From NCBI GenBank assembly GCA_021801565.1, contig JAJYXV010000015.1, positions 23,839 through 87,838 of the forward strand: DNA of 64,000 nucleotides, written 5' to 3'. Shown here one piece after another: positions 28,434 to 42,448 of this stretch (its first letter is position 1; each line of letters starts with the position of its first letter). Source of the DNA: a bacterium (GTDB lineage Bacteria > Patescibacteriota > Minisyncoccia > UBA6257 > GWB1-50-10). Both the position numbers and the translations under genes were made by a program. Under the pieces are notes generated by a model. The model did not search any database and was not told where the DNA came from. It was given only the letters and a program-made list of their open reading frames with translations.

Positions 28434-28979
28434 TTAATCAAGTATATATTCCCATCCAGGTTTCCATTCTTTTGTCTTTCGCCAATCGGTCGCAAATGCT
28501 TCTTCCCACGTTAGTTTTTTAAGAAGAACATCCAGTGCAAGTTGTGGGGCCTTATGAGCAACAATTGCTATGGACTTTCCATTATAATTTTTCTTTATAT
28601 CTTCCAAAAAACTTTTTACGCGTTCTTTTACCATTTCATAACTTTCTCCATTCGGCATTGGTGTAATAACTGATTGTTCTTGTAGTGGCTCAACTATTTC
28701 TGATGGTTTGTTATTATAATCTCCGTAATTACACTCCCTAAGGCGTGCGTCGGGAATAATTTTATATTTATCTCCCCACGTTAATTGGGCGGATTGGATA
28801 GCGCGCTTTAAATCTGATGTAAAAACAACATCAAAGTTTTTGTCTTCCGTGAGTGGTCCTAATTCTTTTGATTGTTGTATTCCAAGTTCCGAAAGTTCAA
28901 CATCTGACCAACCTGAAGAAAACCCCCCTTCATTATCGGTCGTAGTTCCGTGAACAAAATAAGTTATTTTTACGGCCAT
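28434..28979 (-). CDS. histidine phosphatase superfamily protein
   Basis: YFVHGTTTDNE N-terminal motif, GES, and the H in IAIVAHK. Confidence 0.55.
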   Translation of the reverse strand: MAVKITYFVHGTTTDNEGGFSSGWSDVELSELGIQQSKELGPLTEDKNFDVVFTSDLKRAIQSAQLTWGDKYKIIPDARLRECNYGDYNNKPSEIVEPLQEQSVITPMPNGESYEMVKERVKSFLEDIKKNYNGKSIAIVAHKAPQLALDVLLKKLTWEEAFATDWRKTKEWKPGWEYILD

Positions 28980-28987
28980 AAAAATTT

Positions 28988-29029
28988 TGGTGCCCTCGAG
29001 AGGATTTGAACCCCAGACCTTCTCGGTTT
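28988..29029 (-). other. tRNA 3'-half-like fragment (T-loop TTCAAAT, ends GGGCACCA)
   Basis: The reverse complement reads AAACCGAGAAGGTCTGGGGTTCAAATCCTCTCGAGGGCACCA. It shares ACCGAGAAGGTC with tRNA-Val and lacks a 5' half. Confidence 0.4.
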
Positions 29030-29177
29030 ATCCCGTACAAATTTTTTGTTTCGCTATATTTATAATATGAATCTAAATATTAATTTGTGGGCACACAAGG
29101 GATTGAACCTTGGACCTTCTCGGTGTAAACGAGACGCTCTACCACTGAGCTATGTGCCCAAAAAATTTGTACGGGAT
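29030..29177. repeat. perfect 18-bp inverted repeat (ATCCCGTACAAATTTTTT / AAAAAATTTGTACGGGAT) bracketing tRNA-Val plus a 40-nt AT-rich spacer
   Basis: Arms at 29030-29047 and 29160-29177. Confidence 0.8.
29088..29159 (-). tRNA. tRNA-Val (anticodon TAC)
   Basis: GGGCACATAGCTCAGTGGTAGAGCGTCTCGTTTACACCGAGAAGGTCCAAGGTTCAATCCCTTGTGTGCCCA forms a canonical cloverleaf. The acceptor pairs GGGCACA with TGTGCCC. Confidence 0.9.
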
Positions 29178-29319
29178 GTAAACGGATTAGTCCTCTCCCA
29201 CTGAGCCCCGCCTGCCGGCGGGCAGGTAAGCGCGCAAAAACTATCATAATCAATTTAACCGAAGTTTATTGAGTATGCAAATATATGATATAATGAACCT
29301 GTAAAAATGTATTAAGTAA

Positions 29320-30000
29320 GTGCAAATCAGAAGTATTATGACCCGTCTAAAAGATAGAGAAAAAGCAATTAAATTACGAAAACAAGGAAAAAGTTACAGC
29401 CAGATAAAAACAATTATTGGCGTGAATAAGGGGACATTAAGTTATTGGCTAAAAGATTTTCCACTTGAAGAAAAACGACTTCGAGAATTGCGAGACTGGA
29501 ATCAAGTGCGTATTGAACACTATCGAAAAACAAGAACTCTAAAAAGAGAAAATATATAAAAAGAAATATATAAAAAACAAAAGAGCGCTATATTTCCACT
29601 CTCTAAAAGAGATCTTTTTATTGCCGGTCTTTTCTTATACTGGGGCGAGGGCTCAAAAACAAGATTTTCAGAACTCGCTGTTGCCAACACGGATCCTTCA
29701 GTGCCAAAATTTTTTATTTATTGGGTCACCGTTTTTTTGGGTATAGAAAAGTCAAAAATAAAAATACACCTTCATCTCTATAGTGATATGAATATAGAAA
29801 ATGAAACGACATTCTGGTCTGAAACATTGAAAATCCAAAAAAAACAATTTATGAAGCCTTATATAAAAGATTCTTTGTTTAAAAAGATTAATCGCGGATC
29901 ATTCGGTCATGGTACTTGCACGATAAGAGTTGGAAATGCTAAAGTTGCTAAAGAAACCTTAATGGGATTAAGGGTGATTCAAGATCATTTCGGCCCGTAG
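29320..30000 (+). pseudogene. HTH + LAGLIDADG-like putative homing-endonuclease/transposase-related gene interrupted by one in-frame TAA (29557)
   Basis: ORFs 29320..29559 and 29701..30000 are in the same frame, and the intervening codons encode KEIYKKQKSAIFPLSKRDLFIAGLFLYWGEGSK... The N-terminal HTH is KAIKLRKQGKSYSQIKTIIGVNKGTLSYWL. The ORF stop overlaps tRNA positions 8-10. Confidence 0.5.
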
Positions 30001-30062
30001 CTCAGTGGTAGAGCAACGCCCTTATAAGACGTGGGTCGCAGGTCCGATCCCTGCCGGGCCGA
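29991..30062 (+). tRNA. tRNA-Ile-like (anticodon TAT), atypical
   Basis: CGGCCCG TA GCTC AGTGGTA GAGC A ACGCC CTTATAA GACGT GGGTC GCAGG TCCGATC CCTGC CGGGCCG A. There is one C-A mismatch in the anticodon stem and an unusual T-loop (TCCGATC). Confidence 0.5.
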
Positions 30063-30063
30063 C

Positions 30064-30107: not shown

Positions 30108-31523
30108 TCATTTCATTACTATCTGTTTTATTCCCGATGCTTTAATAATTTCGTTAAATTCTTCCTGTTCAATCGTTTCGTTTTCCATAAGTTTCCGTGC
30201 GATAATATCAAGTGTGTCTTTATTTGTAGTGATAATTTTCTTTGCTGTTTCAAGTGACTTTTTCATAATCACATTCATTTCGGAATCAATCATCTCTCCC
30301 GTTTTTTCCGAATAATCTTTTTCCGAAGAAATCTCGCGTCCCAAAAACATAAGTTCATGATTTTTTCCGAGTGTCCGTGGACCAATCACATCGCTCATTC
30401 CATATCGCGTAATTGCTTTATGTGCAAGATCGGTTGCATATTGAATATCGCTCGATGACCCAGTGCTTACATCCTTAAATATAATTGACTCTGCGGCATA
30501 TCCACCAAATGATACCGCGAGATCGGCAAGAAATTGCGCCTTTGTTTTCAATCGTCGTTCTTCGATCGGAAGTTTTAATGTATATCCTCCCGCCATCCCA
30601 CGGCTAATAATCGTCACTTTGTGTACCGGATCACTATCTTTCAGTGTTGCCGCAACAAGTGCGTGTCCCGCTTCGTGATACGCAGTGATTTCTCTTTCTT
30701 TTTGAATCGTCACGCGCGAACGTCGTGCGGGACCAAGTAATACTTTTTCAATTGAATTTAATATGTCGTCCTGCGTCACCTTCTTTCTTCCTGCGCGCGC
30801 AGTTACAATTGCCGCTTCATTTAAAAGGTTTGCAAGATCTGCGCCAGAAAAACCCGGCGTACGAGTTGCCACTACCTTCAAATTCACTGATTCATCAAAT
30901 GGTTTTCCCTTTGCATGAATCTTCAAAATATCCTCACGATCGTGAAGATCGGGCATATCAAGGAGAACGCGCCGATCAAAGCGTCCCGGACGAAGGAGTG
31001 CCTGGTCCAAAATATCGGGACGATTGGTTGCTGCCATCACAATTACATTGGTATCTCGTTCAAATCCATCCATTTCTACAAGTATCTGGTTCAGCGTCTG
31101 TTCGCGCTCGTCGTGTCCGCCCCCAAGTCCCGCTCCGCGTTCACGTCCCACCGCGTCTATTTCGTCGATAAAAATGATTGAAGGAGCTGCCTTTTTTGCG
31201 GTTTGAAATAAATCGCGGACACGTGATGCGCCAACCCCCACAAACATTTCAACAAATTCCGATGCCGAAAGATGAAAGAAGGGGACATTGCTTTCTCCTG
31301 CAACTGCACGAGCGAGAAGTGTTTTTCCGGTTCCCGGAGGACCCATTAAGAGGACTCCGCGAGGAATTTTTGCACCAATATCCAAAAACTTTTTCGGATT
31401 TTTCAAAAAATCCACCACCTCCTCCAACTCTTCTTTTGATTCTTTCAAACCCGCGACATCTTTAAATGTAATTTTGTCTTTATCTTGAGAAAAAAGACAA
31501 ATATTTATTTTTCCAAATGACAT
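30108..31523 (-). CDS. ftsH: ATP-dependent zinc metalloprotease FtsH, AAA+ and protease domains
   Basis: AMSFGK...[14 protein letters not shown] Walker A, DEIDAVG Walker B and the HEAGHA zinc motif. Confidence 0.85.
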
Positions 31524-31550
31524 TGCTTGAATTGCTCAACCCTTCGCCTG

Positions 31551-31973
31551 TCAAAAAATAAACCAAAATAAAAAAATCATAAAAAATATTGGGAGAAGCG
31601 TAGGAATTAAAATACCCATCCAATATTTAAATCCGCTCGGATCCTCGACGGTAATATTTACCTTTCTTAGTTTCTCCTTATCAACACCATAATTTGAAAG
31701 TGTTTCTACAATACCGCTCTCGCTTTCTTTTTTTGAGAGCGCGAGAGAATCATCGGTGAGCGTAATCTTTAAATCGTTTCCGCTAATTACGATGTTTTTT
31801 ACTCCATCGGTGTTTACCTTATCTGCAAGTTCGCTCATATTCATAGTCTTCGGTGGTGTTCCTTCCATTTCAAAAAGAAATGAAAAAATAACCGTGACAA
31901 ATAAGAGAAGTGTAATCGCAAAAATAAGATTTTTACTTAAATTTTTCATATGTTTTCCACTATCATAACGCAT
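31551..31973 (-). CDS. ftsH: FtsH N-terminal membrane/periplasmic domain (same frame as 30108..31523, separated by two TGA codons)
   Basis: TM1, a periplasmic domain and TM2 (WMGILIPTLLPIFFMIFLFWFIF). The frame continues [13 protein letters not shown]. Confidence 0.6.
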   Translation of the reverse strand: MRYDSGKHMKNLSKNLIFAITLLLFVTVIFSFLFEMEGTPPKTMNMSELADKVNTDGVKNIVISGNDLKITLTDDSLALSKKESESGIVETLSNYGVDKEKLRKVNITVEDPSGFKYWMGILIPTLLPIFFMIFLFWFIF

Positions 31974-40005: not shown

Positions 40006-40359
40006 ATGAAATCAATCTTAAAAAAGTGGGGGTTAGTCTCAGCTCTTTCATTGGTTCTTTTGGCTCCAGTTGCGTCAGCCCAATTCGATGTCCCCGGCGA
40101 ACAATTGCCGGCGCCTCGGTTCCAAACATATGGCGGTGCGATACAATTGGTGGAAAAGGCGTCAAGTTGGCTTCTTTATATTGTTATTGCGCTTGCGGTT
40201 ATCTTTATTGTATACGCCGGATTTTTATATCTTACCTCGGGTGGAGATGAGGATAAAACAAAAGCGGCAAAGAACTATATTGTGTATGCAGTGATTGGTA
40301 TCGCAATTGCACTTCTTGCGCGCGGCATTGTACTTCTCGTAAAGAATTTCGTCGGATAA
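40006..40359 (+). CDS. TrbC/VirB2-like pilin paralogue
   Basis: WLLYIVIALAVIFIVYAGFLYLTSGGDEDKTKAAKNYIVYAVIGIAIALLARGIVLLV. Confidence 0.7.
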   Translation: MKSILKKWGLVSALSLVLLAPVASAQFDVPGEQLPAPRFQTYGGAIQLVEKASSWLLYIVIALAVIFIVYAGFLYLTSGGDEDKTKAAKNYIVYAVIGIAIALLARGIVLLVKNFVG

Positions 40360-40365
40360 TACGGT

Positions 40366-40731
40366 TTGTATTCCATGAAAAAAACTACTTGGACAATTCT
40401 TTCATTATTTCTTGCCTCAATTCCAGTGCTTATACACGGACAAACCCCGTCATTATTGGATGCTCCACCCGGATCTATAGTAACAAACAACGGTGCTGAG
40501 GGCGCAATGACACTTCTCCGAAAGGCTGGTGGGTGGTTATACAGCGGCGTAATAGCAATATCGGTAATACTTATGATTTATGGGGGTTTTCTTTATGTAA
40601 CCTCTGGGGGAGATGAAGATAAGGTAAAGAATGGAAAAAATTACATCATTTACGGGGTTGTTGGTATTGCTGTCGCAACACTTGCCACTGGAGTTGTATT
40701 CGTTGTAGGAGAATTCTTGGGGGCAAAATAA
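40366..40731 (+). CDS. TrbC/VirB2-like pilin paralogue
   Basis: WLYSGVIAISVILMIYGGFLYVTSGGDEDKVKNGKNYIIYGVVGIAVATLATGVVFVV. Confidence 0.7.
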   Translation: MYSMKKTTWTILSLFLASIPVLIHGQTPSLLDAPPGSIVTNNGAEGAMTLLRKAGGWLYSGVIAISVILMIYGGFLYVTSGGDEDKVKNGKNYIIYGVVGIAVATLATGVVFVVGEFLGAK

Positions 40732-40740
40732 GAAATTCCT

Positions 40741-41070
40741 ATGAAAAAATATTTTTACGCCATTATCGCTCTTGTATTTCCCTTTTTTGTTCATGCACAA
40801 ACACGACAACCAAAAACAAGTATTACAACGCCGGAAAAGGTAATTGAACTTATCAATAAGTTTGGTGGATGGTTTTATAGTGCACTCTTAGCACTTGCGG
40901 TCATCTTCATTATTTATGCCGCATTTAGATTTTTGACTGCTAGTGGAGATGAAAAAAAAGTAGAAGAGGCAAAACAACAATTAATCTACGCCATTATCGC
41001 TCTTGCGGTTGCAATGCTTGCGACGGGGATTGTTACAGTGATGAAACAATTTCTTGGTGTAACCAATTAA
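40741..41070 (+). CDS. TrbC/VirB2-like pilin paralogue
   Basis: WFYSALLALAVIFIIYAAFRFLTASGDEKKVEEAKQQLIYAIIALAVAMLATGIVTVM. Confidence 0.7.
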   Translation: MKKYFYAIIALVFPFFVHAQTRQPKTSITTPEKVIELINKFGGWFYSALLALAVIFIIYAAFRFLTASGDEKKVEEAKQQLIYAIIALAVAMLATGIVTVMKQFLGVTN

Positions 41071-41160: not shown

Positions 41161-41277
41161 GCCGAGGTGGTCTCGCCGCCGTTCGGGCGGGATAAACTCT
41201 GTTGGCTAATCATGCCCTCGTGGCGGAACTGATATACCCCGCTCGAAACACTTCGTGTTCATACAGGACAAGCGCGC
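41161..41277. other. GC-rich structured segment beginning GCCGAGGTGG (tRNA-Leu 5'-end-like); possible ncRNA or tRNA remnant
   Basis: Contains hairpins CCGCC-gttcg-GGCGG and GAAACAC-ttc-GTGTTC. No complete cloverleaf was found by eye. Confidence 0.25.
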
Positions 41278-41296
41278 AAAATTTAAAACTAAAAAA

Positions 41297-41383
41297 GCTG
41301 AGGTGGCGAAATTGGCAGACGCGCAAGGCTTAGGACCTTGTGAGGGCAACCTCTTGGGAGTTCAAGTCTCCCCCTCAGCACCA
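41297..41383 (+). tRNA. tRNA-Leu (anticodon TAG), CCA-encoded
   Basis: GCTGAGG...CAAGG CTTAGGA CCTTG with a long variable arm (GAGGGCAACCTCTT), the T-arm GGGAGTTCAAGTCTCCC and an encoded CCTCAGCACCA end. Confidence 0.9.
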
Positions 41384-41539
41384 AACAACAAAGTTCATGG
41401 TTCAAAATTTACTCCACATACGAAGGTTGTGCGGGGCCTCTCGAGCCTGCCCGCCGGTGGGTGGGGGCACTATGAAATTCCATCTTTGGTGAAATTCTTT
41501 CTCTAATCCCCACACCCTAACCCCTAATTATCTAACCAT

Positions 41540-42448
41540 CTATTTCTTCTTCCTTCTTATCCCGTGAAATGCTTCATGTACCTCTCGAAGCTCTTTATTT
41601 GTGAGGTGTGTGTAGATTTGTGTTGTTGAAACATTCGCGTGACCTAAAAGTGACTGCACCGAACGAAGATCTGCACCATTAATAAGAAGGTCTGTTGCAA
41701 AACTATGACGTAATTGATGCGGGTGTACTTTCTTCGGAATCCCTGCCGCACGCGCATATCGATCAATAAGGCGCTCCACCGAGCGTGGGGTTATTCTTCC
41801 CAGCGTCTTTCCGGATTTACTTAAACCTACAAATAAAAATTCTTCTGGATCTGTTCTCTTTTTTAAATATTCTTTAATCGCTTTTTTTGCTCCATCAGAA
41901 AGAAATACGATGCGTAACTTGTCCCCCTTTCCTCGCACAGAAATTTCTCCTCGTTCAAGATCAATATACCGCGGGAGGGTGCACAATTCGGAAAGACGAA
42001 GTCCGGTTGAAAAAAACGTTTCAAGTATTGCGCGATCACGAACCGAACGGAGATCGTCTCCTTTTGGAGATTTCAGTAGTCGCTCGAGCTCTCCATAATC
42101 AAGCACTTCAATATCGCGTCGTGAAACTCTTGGAAGTTCGATTGCATCGGGAGAGAGAATATTATATCCGCGTTTTATCAGATATTTCAAAAAATTCCTG
42201 ATTGCAATCACATAATAACTCTGTGTATTCCTTTTTATGTTCTTGCGCGCAAGCATTACACGAAACGATCTCACACGCTCTTCTGTAATATCTTTAATTG
42301 AGTTGGTTTTTGTGTAATCAAAAAATAATTTGAGATATCGTTCATAGTTTTCCCTCGTTTTTGACGAACGATTTTTTTCTATTTCCAAATAATCTAAATA
42401 TTCCCGAAAGTGGCGCTCTATATCATTCATACCCCTTTTTACCAACAT
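41540..42448 (-). CDS. xerC: XerC/XerD-type tyrosine site-specific recombinase
   Basis: N-terminal SAM-like domain (IERHFREYLDYLEIEKNRSSKTRENYERYL). The catalytic R...HxxR...Y motifs are HQLRHSFATDLL and GHANVSTTQIYTH. Confidence 0.8.
   Translation of the reverse strand: MLVKRGMNDIERHFREYLDYLEIEKNRSSKTRENYERYLKLFFDYTKTNSIKDITEERVRSFRVMLARKNIKRNTQSYYVIAIRNFLKYLIKRGYNILSPDAIELPRVSRRDIEVLDYGELERLLKSPKGDDLRSVRDRAILETFFSTGLRLSELCTLPRYIDLERGEISVRGKGDKLRIVFLSDGAKKAIKEYLKKRTDPEEFLFVGLSKSGKTLGRITPRSVERLIDRYARAAGIPKKVHPHQLRHSFATDLLINGADLRSVQSLLGHANVSTTQIYTHLTNKELREVHEAFHGIRRKKK

Follow-up and report, generated by a model that had tools for sequence, protein, structure and literature searches.

In a 64,000-nt stretch of bacterial contig JAJYXV010000015.1 (the window, to which all positions and strands refer unless a comparator is named), an intact tRNA-Val gene lies inside the broken remains of a second tRNA-Val gene. 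The window belongs to a genome of the Patescibacteria; the host is bacterial, as seen from the ftsH and S1 genes in the window, and the nearest named relatives of its FtsH were from Jorgensenbacteria (~81% identity). The nested locus is read on the minus strand, from 29235 to 28988, and all of its features are on that strand. It starts behind the upstream flank of the resident gene, its promoter and leader region (29236-29302) that was 100% identical to the flank of an uninterrupted allele in comparator loci L326 and L328; a simple sigma-70 scan of this flank found no consensus promoter. The first nine nucleotides of the dead outer tRNA-Val, GCGCGCTTA (29227-29235), were the same as in the intact old tRNA-Val of L011-L014, L323/L324 and L326/L328. 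They are followed by a 20-nt GC palindrome variant, CCTGCCCGCCGGCAGGCGGG (29207-29226; 'P1'), which lies between nt 9 and 10 of the dead copy and is missing in uninterrupted alleles. Next come the decayed nt 10-36, GCTCAGTGGGAGAGGACTAATCCGTTTAC (29178-29206), delimited by comparison with the L326 allele, in which the D stem and the anticodon stem are no longer complementary. The left arm of an inverted repeat, ATCCCGTACAAATTTTTT (29160-29177), then directly adjoins G1 of the inner tRNA-Val(UAC) (29087-29159), the functional replacement copy, and a spacer (29048-29086) separates this tRNA from the right arm, AAAAAATTTGTACGGGAT (29030-29047). The 3′ part of the dead gene, composed of AA, nt 37-76 and CCA (AAACCGAGAAGGTCTGGGGTTCAAATCCTCTCGAGGGCACCA; 28988-29029), was delimited by alignment to the L326 allele, and the start codon of a histidine phosphatase gene lies 8 nt beyond it.

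A first-pass annotation, made from the letters of the window, had proposed an intact tRNA-Val(TAC) within a perfect 18-bp inverted repeat, and this description was borne out. ARAGORN and Rfam both called a tRNA-Val(TAC) at 29087/8-29159 on the minus strand, and the score against Rfam RF00005 was 74.6 bits compared to a gathering score of 29. A repeat search returned 29030-29048 and 29159-29177, 19 nt with 100% complementarity, the 19th pair being formed by G1 of the inner tRNA. The spacer, previously put at 40 nt and AT-rich, was ~39-40 nt long, AT-rich and without an open reading frame (ORF). The outer segments that had been called tRNA-half-like were also found, extending from GCGCGCTTA at 29235 to the CCA at 28988, although the palindrome within the 5′ half had gone unmentioned in the annotation, and the suggested pairing of the outer GGGAGAGGA with TCCTCTC was seen in the minimum-free-energy fold. 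The nested locus folded at -85 kcal/mol, with z = -3.9 compared to shuffled sequences, and in the predicted fold the 18/19-bp helix of the inverted repeat is stacked onto the inner tRNA's acceptor stem. Matches of 12 nt between the outer pseudo-halves and the inner tRNA occur in the D arm and in the anticodon arm, and the 18-mer of the repeat occurred only at its two sites in the 64 kb, even when 3 mismatches were allowed. The 351 nt upstream of the next gene were identical across six independent assemblies, and because of this, and because a diverged copy of the locus was present in L015/L016/L017, the locus is not an assembly artefact.

The comparator loci, labelled with an L and a number, were obtained via the downstream histidine phosphatase and via members of the ftsH 90% cluster. 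By the phosphatase route only the four closest clusters were informative, and the ftsH cluster was then used as the anchor; a related tRNA region was absent from 80 phosphatase loci of species-representative genomes. The phosphatase is a poor synteny anchor because it is common to many bins of the Candidate Phyla Radiation (CPR) and of DPANN at 60-80% identity. The gene itself (28434-28979, minus strand) had thousands of homologues with 59-80% identity in many CPR phyla and in bins labelled DPANN archaea, Gammaproteobacteria and Bdellovibrionales, synteny was not conserved, and this spread suggests frequent transfer or mis-binning.

The uninterrupted gene that the first-pass annotation had suggested looking for in relatives was found in L011-L014, L323/L324 and L326/L328. 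The ancestral arrangement, seen in L011-L014 and L323/L324, consists of ftsH, a terminator, a promoter, a tRNA-Ile(UAU) starting with GCGCGCG, a tRNA-Val(UAC) starting with GCGCGCT and then the next gene. In L326 and L328, the uninterrupted old tRNA-Val reads GCGCGCTTAGCTCAG...AAGCGCGCA (printed as GCGCGCTTAGCTCAGTTGGTTAGAGCGTCTCGTTTACACCGAGAAGGTCTGGGGTTCGAATCCCTAAGCGCGCA). When the window was compared to L326, the last 67 nt of the upstream flank and nt 1-9 were identical, and the identity ended exactly at the insertion point of the palindrome. On the other side, nt 38-60 of the 3′ piece, reaching into the T loop, differed from the L326 allele at one position, and CCGAGAAGGTCTGGGGTTC with the following AATCC matched it. 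The outer halves represent the resident tRNA-Val gene, because the flank, nt 1-9 and the 3′ piece all match the gene in L326. The 150-bp insert splits the anticodon loop of the resident gene precisely at the nt 36/37 junction. The locus thus shows a presence/absence polymorphism, with an uninterrupted allele in L326 and nested alleles in the window, L325 and L015, and the idea that a tRNA gene was disrupted by a small element that is bounded by an inverted repeat and delivered an intact tRNA-Val was supported by this synteny.

The outer copy has lost its ability to fold and score as a tRNA. The T arm is nearly intact; the last 14 nt were replaced, so that the 3′ acceptor strand now reads CGAGGGC and pairs with GCGCGCT at only 4/7 positions. 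The outer halves gave no match in an Rfam tRNA search even at E <= 10. With both inserts removed in silico, the outer sequence gave no ARAGORN call at the default threshold, and only at a lowered threshold (-ps80) was the spliced copy called as a mismatched tRNA-Val(TAC); the spliced L015 copy gave no call at any threshold tried. This agrees with the earlier remark that the outer halves do not assemble into a clean cloverleaf. The outer halves are the original tRNA-Val(UAC) gene, homologous to the intact gene at the same locus and now a pseudogene. The degenerate tRNA intron, which the first-pass annotation had offered as an alternative, was not supported. Searches for Intron_gpI found nothing in the window at the gathering threshold, and nothing in 28900-29350 even at E <= 10, and by inspection the junction consists of the inverted-repeat helix, a 2-nt bulge on one strand only and a 4-bp GTTT/AAAC helix, with no two 3-nt bulges 4 bp apart as in a bulge-helix-bulge. 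The outer tRNA is also decayed in both carrier lineages. A functional nested intron was ruled out by the lack of a group I match, the lack of bulge-helix-bulge geometry and the degenerate spliced tRNA. Two old sequence types were also compared as possible sources of the outer 3′ halves, but the matches (33 vs 32 for the window and 30 vs 32 for L015) were too weak for an assignment.

The second carrier lineage, L015/L016 (haplotype D; ftsH 86% identical), had the same nested structure, palindrome site, inverted repeat and inner tRNA. Its palindrome had 2 substitutions, and its dead copy contained two extra hairpin inserts, a hairpin of 11 bp within the anticodon stem and a second insert within the T loop. 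The left arm of the repeat was kept at 17/18 positions and the right arm at 15/18; one change leads to a G-U pair in the RNA and one position in the opposite arm to an A·C mismatch. The spacer was 67% identical between the window and L015, compared to 64-68% at third codon positions, which is about the neutral level. L015/L016 also have a ~110-nt GC-rich inverted-repeat structure between the ftsH stop and the terminator (L015 2327-2440; ccccgttagaagc...tgcggcaagccgcgg...gcttctaacgggg) that is missing in the other alleles.

The inner tRNA was 72/72 identical between the window and L015. Compared to the old type, as found in L013, its D, anticodon, variable and T loops were all identical, and 7 base pairs differed, all of them compensated: 2:71, 5:68 and 7:66 in the acceptor stem, 27:43 in the anticodon stem, and 49:65, 50:64 and 51:63 in the T stem. 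The overall identity to the resident gene was 82%. Because the loops are identical while seven stem pairs changed with compensation, the inner tRNA is not a fresh local duplicate. Judging by this pattern, it is in all probability an orthologue with a long history of selection in another lineage, and a replacement of foreign type. At this locus an essential resident tRNA gene was disrupted and its function taken over by a complete tRNA from outside, and the old pieces are decaying in place.

A second replaced tRNA gene lies next to the Val locus. An ORF on the plus strand (29338-30000), 180 bp from the Val insert, is collinear with a 220-amino-acid (aa) ORF in L326 with 61% amino-acid identity. 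It is a pseudogene here, with a single in-frame TAA (29557-29559) at codon 74, and ends with a TAG at 29998-30000. It is fused to a replacement tRNA-Ile(UAU) of GGCCCG type (29991-30063, plus strand), which is inverted compared to the ancestral order. In both the window and L326 the TAG stop codon of the ORF coincides with nt 8-10 of the replacement tRNA-Ile. The 220-aa ORF is intact in L326/L328, the haplotype with an intact old tRNA-Val, and in these loci a 3′ remnant of the old tRNA-Ile adjoins the new one; the ancestral type, GCGCGCG, was found in L011-L014 and L323. A Pfam search with the 220-aa ORF returned only an N-terminal helix-turn-helix (HTH) domain, HTH_23. The motif LFIAGLFLYWGEGSK resembles a LAGLIDADG helix, and G97, L98, L100, G103, E104 and G105 were invariant in 32 sequences. 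Since Pfam matches only HTH_23 and the motif resembles a LAGLIDADG helix, we call the ORF endonuclease-like and not a proven LAGLIDADG enzyme; it is a putative homing endonuclease. The family comprises 2433 members, most of them without a name. On large viral contigs, remote relatives (26-36% identity) were found beside tRNA genes in 21/22 loci, mostly inside tRNA arrays, and in two of them (L348 and L349) the ORF stops at nt 8 of a tRNA-Val(UAC). The association of the ORF family with tRNA genes is strong and consistent. Small nuclease-type ORFs, either of this family or coding for GIY-YIG mini-proteins, that stop on the TAG formed by U8-A9-G10 of a downstream tRNA were seen in L215, L216, L220, L222, L257, L278, the window (29998-30000), L326, L348 and L349; RNase P, when cutting at the tRNA 5′ end, would strip the stop codon from the nuclease mRNA, which is a possible built-in limit on expression.

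The downstream haplotypes recombined with two types of ftsH. In haplotype B (L326 and L328), three elements lie on the opposite strand, namely the 3′ remnant of the old tRNA-Ile, a tRNA-Ile of the new GGCTCG type and the 220-aa ORF in its intact form, and they are followed by the intact old tRNA-Val. Haplotype C (the window, L325 and L327) has the nested tRNA-Val and the ORF with the nonsense codon; L327 ends before the Val gene. The ftsH types were ~84-85% identical to each other, type X being found in the window, L326 and L327 and type Y in L004 (= L325) and L328, so that all four combinations of ftsH type and haplotype B or C exist, each of them in more than one assembly. The ftsH of L326 was 98.0% identical to that of the window, and in a sliding comparison the two were ~100% identical from 32937 to ~30340 and 44-80% identical beyond. 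L004/L325 was ~84% identical to the window down to ~30400, below which the identity rose to 100% and stayed there as far as 26024 or further. Both breakpoints fall within ~100 bp at the 3′ end of ftsH (30300-30400), adjoining the tRNA cassettes, and the recombination tracts thus end near the cassette. We infer that break-induced gene conversion, with the flanks co-converted, would leave a mosaic of this kind. What moves now is the haplotype. The ftsH gene of the window (minus strand) has in-frame TGA codons at 31551-31553 and 31536-31538 (codons 141 and 146), where five relatives have CGA/CGG (Arg) and GGA/GGG (Gly), respectively. The gene callers of the source still give a 621-aa ftsH product, and an in-frame TGA was present in no other ORF inspected; the TGAs could mean that FtsH is split and restarts at Met-151, that the stop codons are read through or that an essential gene is dying.

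The palindrome in the dead tRNA-Val is a variant of a sequence that recurs at other loci, where the consensus is CCTGCCTGCCGGCAGGCAGG. A metagenome scan in which the palindrome was anchored in a tRNA context (TR + palindrome + GCTCA) returned at least 120 loci. There were at least 65 AT-rich matches at no fewer than 61 distinct loci with the palindrome after tRNA nt 9, a context that the anchored pattern imposes, making the scan uninformative on the site specificity of the palindrome. In 44 of the 65 matches listed, the preceding 9 nt recurred exactly as the start of a nearby intact tRNA on the same strand, compared to a chance expectation of ~0.002 per locus. The intact copy was 30-420 nt downstream in 43/44 cases and upstream in L195, and the recurrences covered nine isotypes (Asn, Thr, Met, Val, Ala, Arg, Trp, Gly and Asp). 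In five further matches listed, the 9-mer differed by one or two bases. The dead fragments often reach the anticodon loop and contain further hairpins, TCCCGAT..ATCGGGA and GCTCAGnnCTGAGC. At tRNA-Asn and tRNA-Trp loci, the module of nt 1-9, palindrome and small hairpin was nearly invariant in flanks that could not be aligned, and therefore the module is either under selection or still spreading.

At 13 or more of these loci, a GIY-YIG ORF of 77-85 aa fills the gap between the fragment and the live tRNA. Four representatives matched the GIY-YIG domain (Pfam PF01541) with E from 3e-12 to 5e-14, and in 6 of the 13 loci listed the stop codon is the TAG at tRNA nt 8-10. No GIY-YIG mini-ORF is encoded in the 64-kb window. 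Endonuclease-type ORFs fused to tRNAs are found in equivalent places at the Ile locus of the window and at many other loci. L194 shows two rounds: its stop codon was destroyed by a second palindrome, which is followed by a further intact tRNA. Nested genes with their outer 3′ parts still in place were seen in L268 and L278; in L268, a 12-bp inverted repeat surrounds an inner tRNA-Met and the palindrome lies in the outer variable region. In L232 (CXWK01092927.1), the tRNA-Asn after the GIY-YIG ORF lacks an ARAGORN call, and its sequence, ...GCGCCCTGT/AAGAAACTTGCAGC..., would fit a group I intron at 35/36, as described for tRNA-Asn of Patescibacteria (PMC13011429).

Exact copies of CCTGCCTGCCGGCAGGCAGG were also present in 35 viral loci (L287-L321), on contigs with a GC content from 38% to 68% and in many GC-rich non-tRNA contexts. 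The short flanks of these viral palindromes were often direct or inverted repeats of each other. The palindrome was found in the variable loop of a phage tRNA-Met (L288 and L311) and in the D loop of a tRNA fragment in L318, where a GIY-YIG ORF follows 18 nt later. The palindrome is thus not confined to tRNA nt 9/10. A viral scan with the palindrome-in-tRNA pattern gave 0 matches, and a loose palindrome pattern gave 63 matches, mostly chance matches in GC-rich DNA, with 8 in an AT-rich context. The palindrome may be a mobile hairpin resembling repetitive extragenic palindromic (REP) elements that is kept only where the tRNA copy is dispensable, a mark interrupting the target site of a nuclease, or a stabiliser of a transcript 5′ end. 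Other hairpins and inserts were seen in the dead tRNA pieces as well: TCCCGAT(n)ATCGGGA was found either in the D loop or in place of the anticodon arm, and in 3′ fragments the T loop has given way to a ~30-nt element, GAGAAGTTTATCCTGAGCGAAGTCGAAGGGA. Members of these families were found downstream of the intact tRNA in L198, L226, L244 and L262 and in 5′ fragments in L189, L203, L210, L253 and L186; L198 has two tandem copies of trailer and 3′ fragment.

We lean slightly towards reading the nested tRNA-Val locus as the relic of a tRNA-gene replacement cassette of the homing-endonuclease type. We infer the nuclease activity and the homing mechanism, together with the roles of the inverted repeat and the palindrome, along the following lines. 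A nuclease would cut the resident tRNA gene, and repair of the double-strand break by gene conversion would copy the allele that bears the cassette. The cassette would bring its own tRNA, so that the cell survives and the insert is hard to lose, and the displaced pieces would decay. CPR genomes are tiny, and their tRNA genes are probably mostly single-copy. The Val cassette may have lost its nuclease gene, or it may have moved with the help of, or by co-conversion with, the neighbouring Ile cassette, whose HTH and LAGLIDADG-like ORF carries the endonuclease-like motif. The old promoter would transcribe the whole unit. The helix of the inverted repeat probably shields the inner pre-tRNA from mispairing with the homologous pseudo-halves, and it may offer a double-strand-specific cut, of RNase III type, before RNase P and 3′ trimming. 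A wider proposal, which we hold only tentatively and expect to fail somewhat sooner than to stand, is that CPR bacteria and large phages share a family of selfish cassettes, so far undescribed, that replace tRNA genes. In such a family, a minimal nuclease (an 80-aa GIY-YIG or an HTH and LAGLIDADG-like protein) would be fused to a complete tRNA, the stop codon would be U8-A9-G10, the cassette would break the resident tRNA gene and stand in for it, and the palindrome CCTGCCTGCCGGCAGGCAGG at nt 9/10 of the displaced copy would be a working part, acting as an immunity mark against re-cutting, as the cis site of a structure-specific nuclease or as a 5′ stabiliser of the nuclease-tRNA transcript.

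Several points weigh against the replacement-cassette reading. The Val insert contains no ORF and no recognisable ORF remnant, and all of the nuclease ORFs are putative. Because the spacer has diverged at about the neutral rate, the Val insertion is old and does not point to recent mobility of the cassette. The two alleles of the inverted-repeat helix, with one uncompensated A·C mismatch and one G·U change, do not establish selection on it. A second insert bounded by this repeat was found neither in the 64-kb window nor in two viral scans for parts of it, the metagenomes not having been searched for it. Viral scans with the inner tRNA 3′ part gave 0 matches, and those with the left insert junction gave 4 matches, all due to chance. 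The mosaic haplotypes come from short-read metagenome assemblies, in which chimeric joins are possible. Finally, L189, L226, L254 and L186 have duplicated leaders that fit a plain tandem duplication of leader and tRNA 5′ part, and many of the metagenome loci also fit plain tandem duplication.

The perfect 18-bp repeats exactly at the insert ends and the precise insertion point (nt 36/37 when compared to the uninterrupted allele) could also be explained if the insert were a non-autonomous transposon similar to a miniature inverted-repeat transposable element, with the arms as terminal inverted repeats and a distant transposase that inserted a captured tRNA-Val into the anticodon loop. A similar string, AAAAATTTAGTACAGGGTGAAA, at the junction of the new and old tRNA-Ile in L326 would fit this explanation, but the similarity is weak and the string partly aligns to the decayed old T arm. 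We consider the transposon unlikely. There is no target-site duplication, the nested allele reading GTTTAC/.../AAACCGAG compared to GTTTACACCGAG in the uninterrupted one, and there is a single copy in 64 kb even at 3 mismatches. The inverted repeat of the other nested case, L268, is unrelated in sequence, and no transposase was noticed in the ORF lists examined, a transposase survey of the window not having been made. Nor would any mobile element be needed if slippage or template switching had duplicated the gene locally, quasi-palindrome correction had perfected the inverted repeat and the redundant outer copy had decayed. The simple tandem duplications in L189, L226, L254 and L186 fit such a process, as do the D-arm remnants in Asn, Trp and Thr fragments that are repeatedly perfect hairpins (GCTCAGnnCTGAGC), a signature of template-switch correction. 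However, the inner tRNA has seven compensated pair differences without a loop change, which points to long independent evolution, and its sequence in L015 is 100% that of the window, in contrast to the outer parts, which differ. The presence/absence at 98% ftsH identity and the mosaic haplotypes moreover point to transfer by recombination, and we see only a small chance that the locus arose by duplication in place.

The nested locus might instead be a functional composite RNA, in which the outer halves and the repeat helix serve as a processing or regulatory scaffold, with a structured leader and trailer controlling the maturation of the inner tRNA or the phosphatase mRNA, or as a decoy for nucleases that target tRNA. 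Conservation is what speaks for it: at tRNA-Asn and tRNA-Trp loci nt 1-9, palindrome and small hairpin are far better conserved than the flanks, in related Val loci nt 1-9 of the fragment track the acceptor of the live tRNA (GGGCGAT vs GGGGGAT), and between the window and L015 the inverted repeat and the junctions next to it are better conserved (94% and 83%) than the spacer (67%). The fold is also more stable than shuffles (z = -3.9). The conservation of the palindrome module would, however, equally fit a spreading selfish element or gene conversion. Close strains thrive with a plain gene (L326), the outer parts differ by large indels between carriers (the 11-bp hairpin and the T-loop insert of L015), and the mismatch in the L015 repeat is uncompensated; we therefore see a slim chance for the composite RNA. 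Integrative elements classically insert into tRNA genes and are known to leave partial tRNA copies behind, and next to a tRNA-Leu locus of similar look in the window there is a gene for a tyrosine recombinase. The tRNA fragments could on these grounds be duplicates of attL/attR type left by an integrase through site-specific recombination into a tRNA gene. The outer pieces are complementary halves of one gene and not direct repeats, the insert is only 150 bp long and sits in the anticodon loop instead of the 3′ end, and no integrase gene adjoins the Val locus, which makes an integrase footprint very improbable.

Against the background of known systems, the tRNA-Val locus appears to be an endonuclease-associated gene replacement that left displaced pseudogene pieces. 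It is one example of a broader pattern, the replacement of tRNA genes in CPR bacteria, which is widespread, often linked to small nuclease genes and apparently undescribed. The literature search found no description of live-in-dead nested tRNA genes, of a palindrome at nt 9/10 or of a rule that places the stop codon inside the tRNA; the palindrome sequence was matched in no paper of the library searched, and a search for 'disrupted tRNA' and Patescibacteria gave none. The closest parallel is SegB, encoded in the tRNA gene cluster of the T-even phages, reportedly studied by Brok-Volchanskaya et al. in 2008. SegB is a free-standing GIY-YIG homing endonuclease that cuts inside tRNA genes and is enriched beside them (PMC13096335). 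It yields tandem repeats of tRNA and segB, with microhomology between the tRNA 5′ end and the 3′ end of the nuclease gene, and causes the tRNA region to be inherited preferentially or to be duplicated as a segment (PMC13096335). The CPR nuclease ORFs similarly abut or overlap the tRNA 5′ end and are surrounded by partial tRNA copies. In contrast to SegB, the locus here is on a CPR chromosome, the resident tRNA was destroyed and replaced instead of amplified, with the live copy nested in the dead one, a 20-nt palindrome marks the dead copy, and the Val insert has no ORF. The ORFs found here are also either ~80-aa GIY-YIG proteins without a DNA-binding domain or HTH and LAGLIDADG-like proteins.

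In fungal mitochondria, mobile endonuclease ORFs bring a replacement gene segment and the displaced segment remains as a downstream pseudogene (e.g. Allomyces atp6), and mobile GC-rich hairpins are known as yeast GC clusters and Allomyces double-hairpin elements. The likeness is that the invader supplies a functional copy, the old piece stays as a fragment and GC palindromes occur in or beside genes of an AT-rich genome; here, however, the host is a bacterium, the target is a tRNA, a complete gene is supplied, and the palindrome is at a fixed position, nt 9/10. The tRNA group I introns of Patescibacteria sit at positions 33-37 of the anticodon loop, are 184-894 bp long and in some cases carry homing endonuclease genes (PMC13011429). 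The same paper makes no mention of pseudogenes, nested genes, hairpins or inverted repeats (PMC13011429). Phylum and target, the anticodon loop, are common to both, but the insert described here has no intron core, is at 150 bp below the minimum of that survey, contains a whole tRNA and is flanked by decayed 'exons'. Archaeal disrupted and split tRNAs (Nanoarchaeum) resemble the locus in having several insertion positions (here nt 9/10, the anticodon loop and the T loop of L015) and a long helix joining the halves; they differ in that the host here is bacterial, there is no bulge-helix-bulge by inspection, the halves form no tRNA, and a complete tRNA of the same identity lies inside. A GTAG motif is typical of REPs. 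The palindrome resembles the elements of the REP/REPIN-RAYT (REP doublets and their associated tyrosine transposases) and IS200/IS605 systems in being short, GC-rich and multi-copy, its GTA/G site overlaps the REP motif, and it is found at sites that would be single-stranded loops or junctions if the strand of the tRNA gene were folded (nt 9/10 and the D, variable and T loops). It differs in that the same perfect 20-mer occurs in AT-rich CPR and in 60-68% GC viral contigs, and the link to tRNA fragments and mini-nucleases is not a known property of REPs; no RAYT or TnpA gene was found, no search aimed at one having been made.

If the replacement-cassette reading is true, it would describe a gene-drive-like, addiction-type strategy that acts on the translation apparatus, and a route for the horizontal replacement of tRNA genes. 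Standard tRNA finders and gene callers split or mislabel such tRNA fragments, GC hairpins and mini-ORFs. The palindrome and the stop-inside-tRNA rule would hint at how the cassettes are expressed and restrained, and the occurrence of the ORF family in the tRNA arrays of large phages would link the finding to SegB-driven tRNA amplification as an anti-defence strategy.

A tRNA-Leu locus in the window has a similar look to the Val locus. The tRNA-Leu(UAG) at 41297-41383 (plus strand), within 41161-41470, seems to lie inside older tRNA-Leu remnants. These are too decayed for a clean alignment, and no comparator allele was found, contigs with the neighbouring recombinase being identical or 1 nt apart across the intergenic region. 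Upstream of the tRNA-Leu, GCCGAGGTG, similar to nt 1-9 of a tRNA-Leu, is followed by a ~50-nt insert with a GC hairpin, CGCCGCCGTTCGGGCGGG, and then by the D-arm-like GCGGAACTGATATACCCCGC. Downstream, the sequence reads CCTC(TCGAG + CCTGCCCGCCGGTGGGTGGG)GGCAC, where CCTGCCCGCCGGTGGGTGGG (41446-41465) is the second palindrome variant in the window, and removal of the part in brackets would restore CCTCGGCA, which matches the 3′ acceptor strand. The end of the dead tRNA-Val, CCTCTCGAG..GGCAC, is the same string as the one that flanks the palindrome here, at 41437-41470. The tRNA-Leu locus is flanked by three small tandem genes for membrane proteins similar to type IV secretion system (T4SS) pilin/TrbC (40006-41070, plus strand) and by the gene for the tyrosine recombinase (41540-42448, minus strand), in which Pfam found SAM-like N-terminal domains and Phage_integrase.

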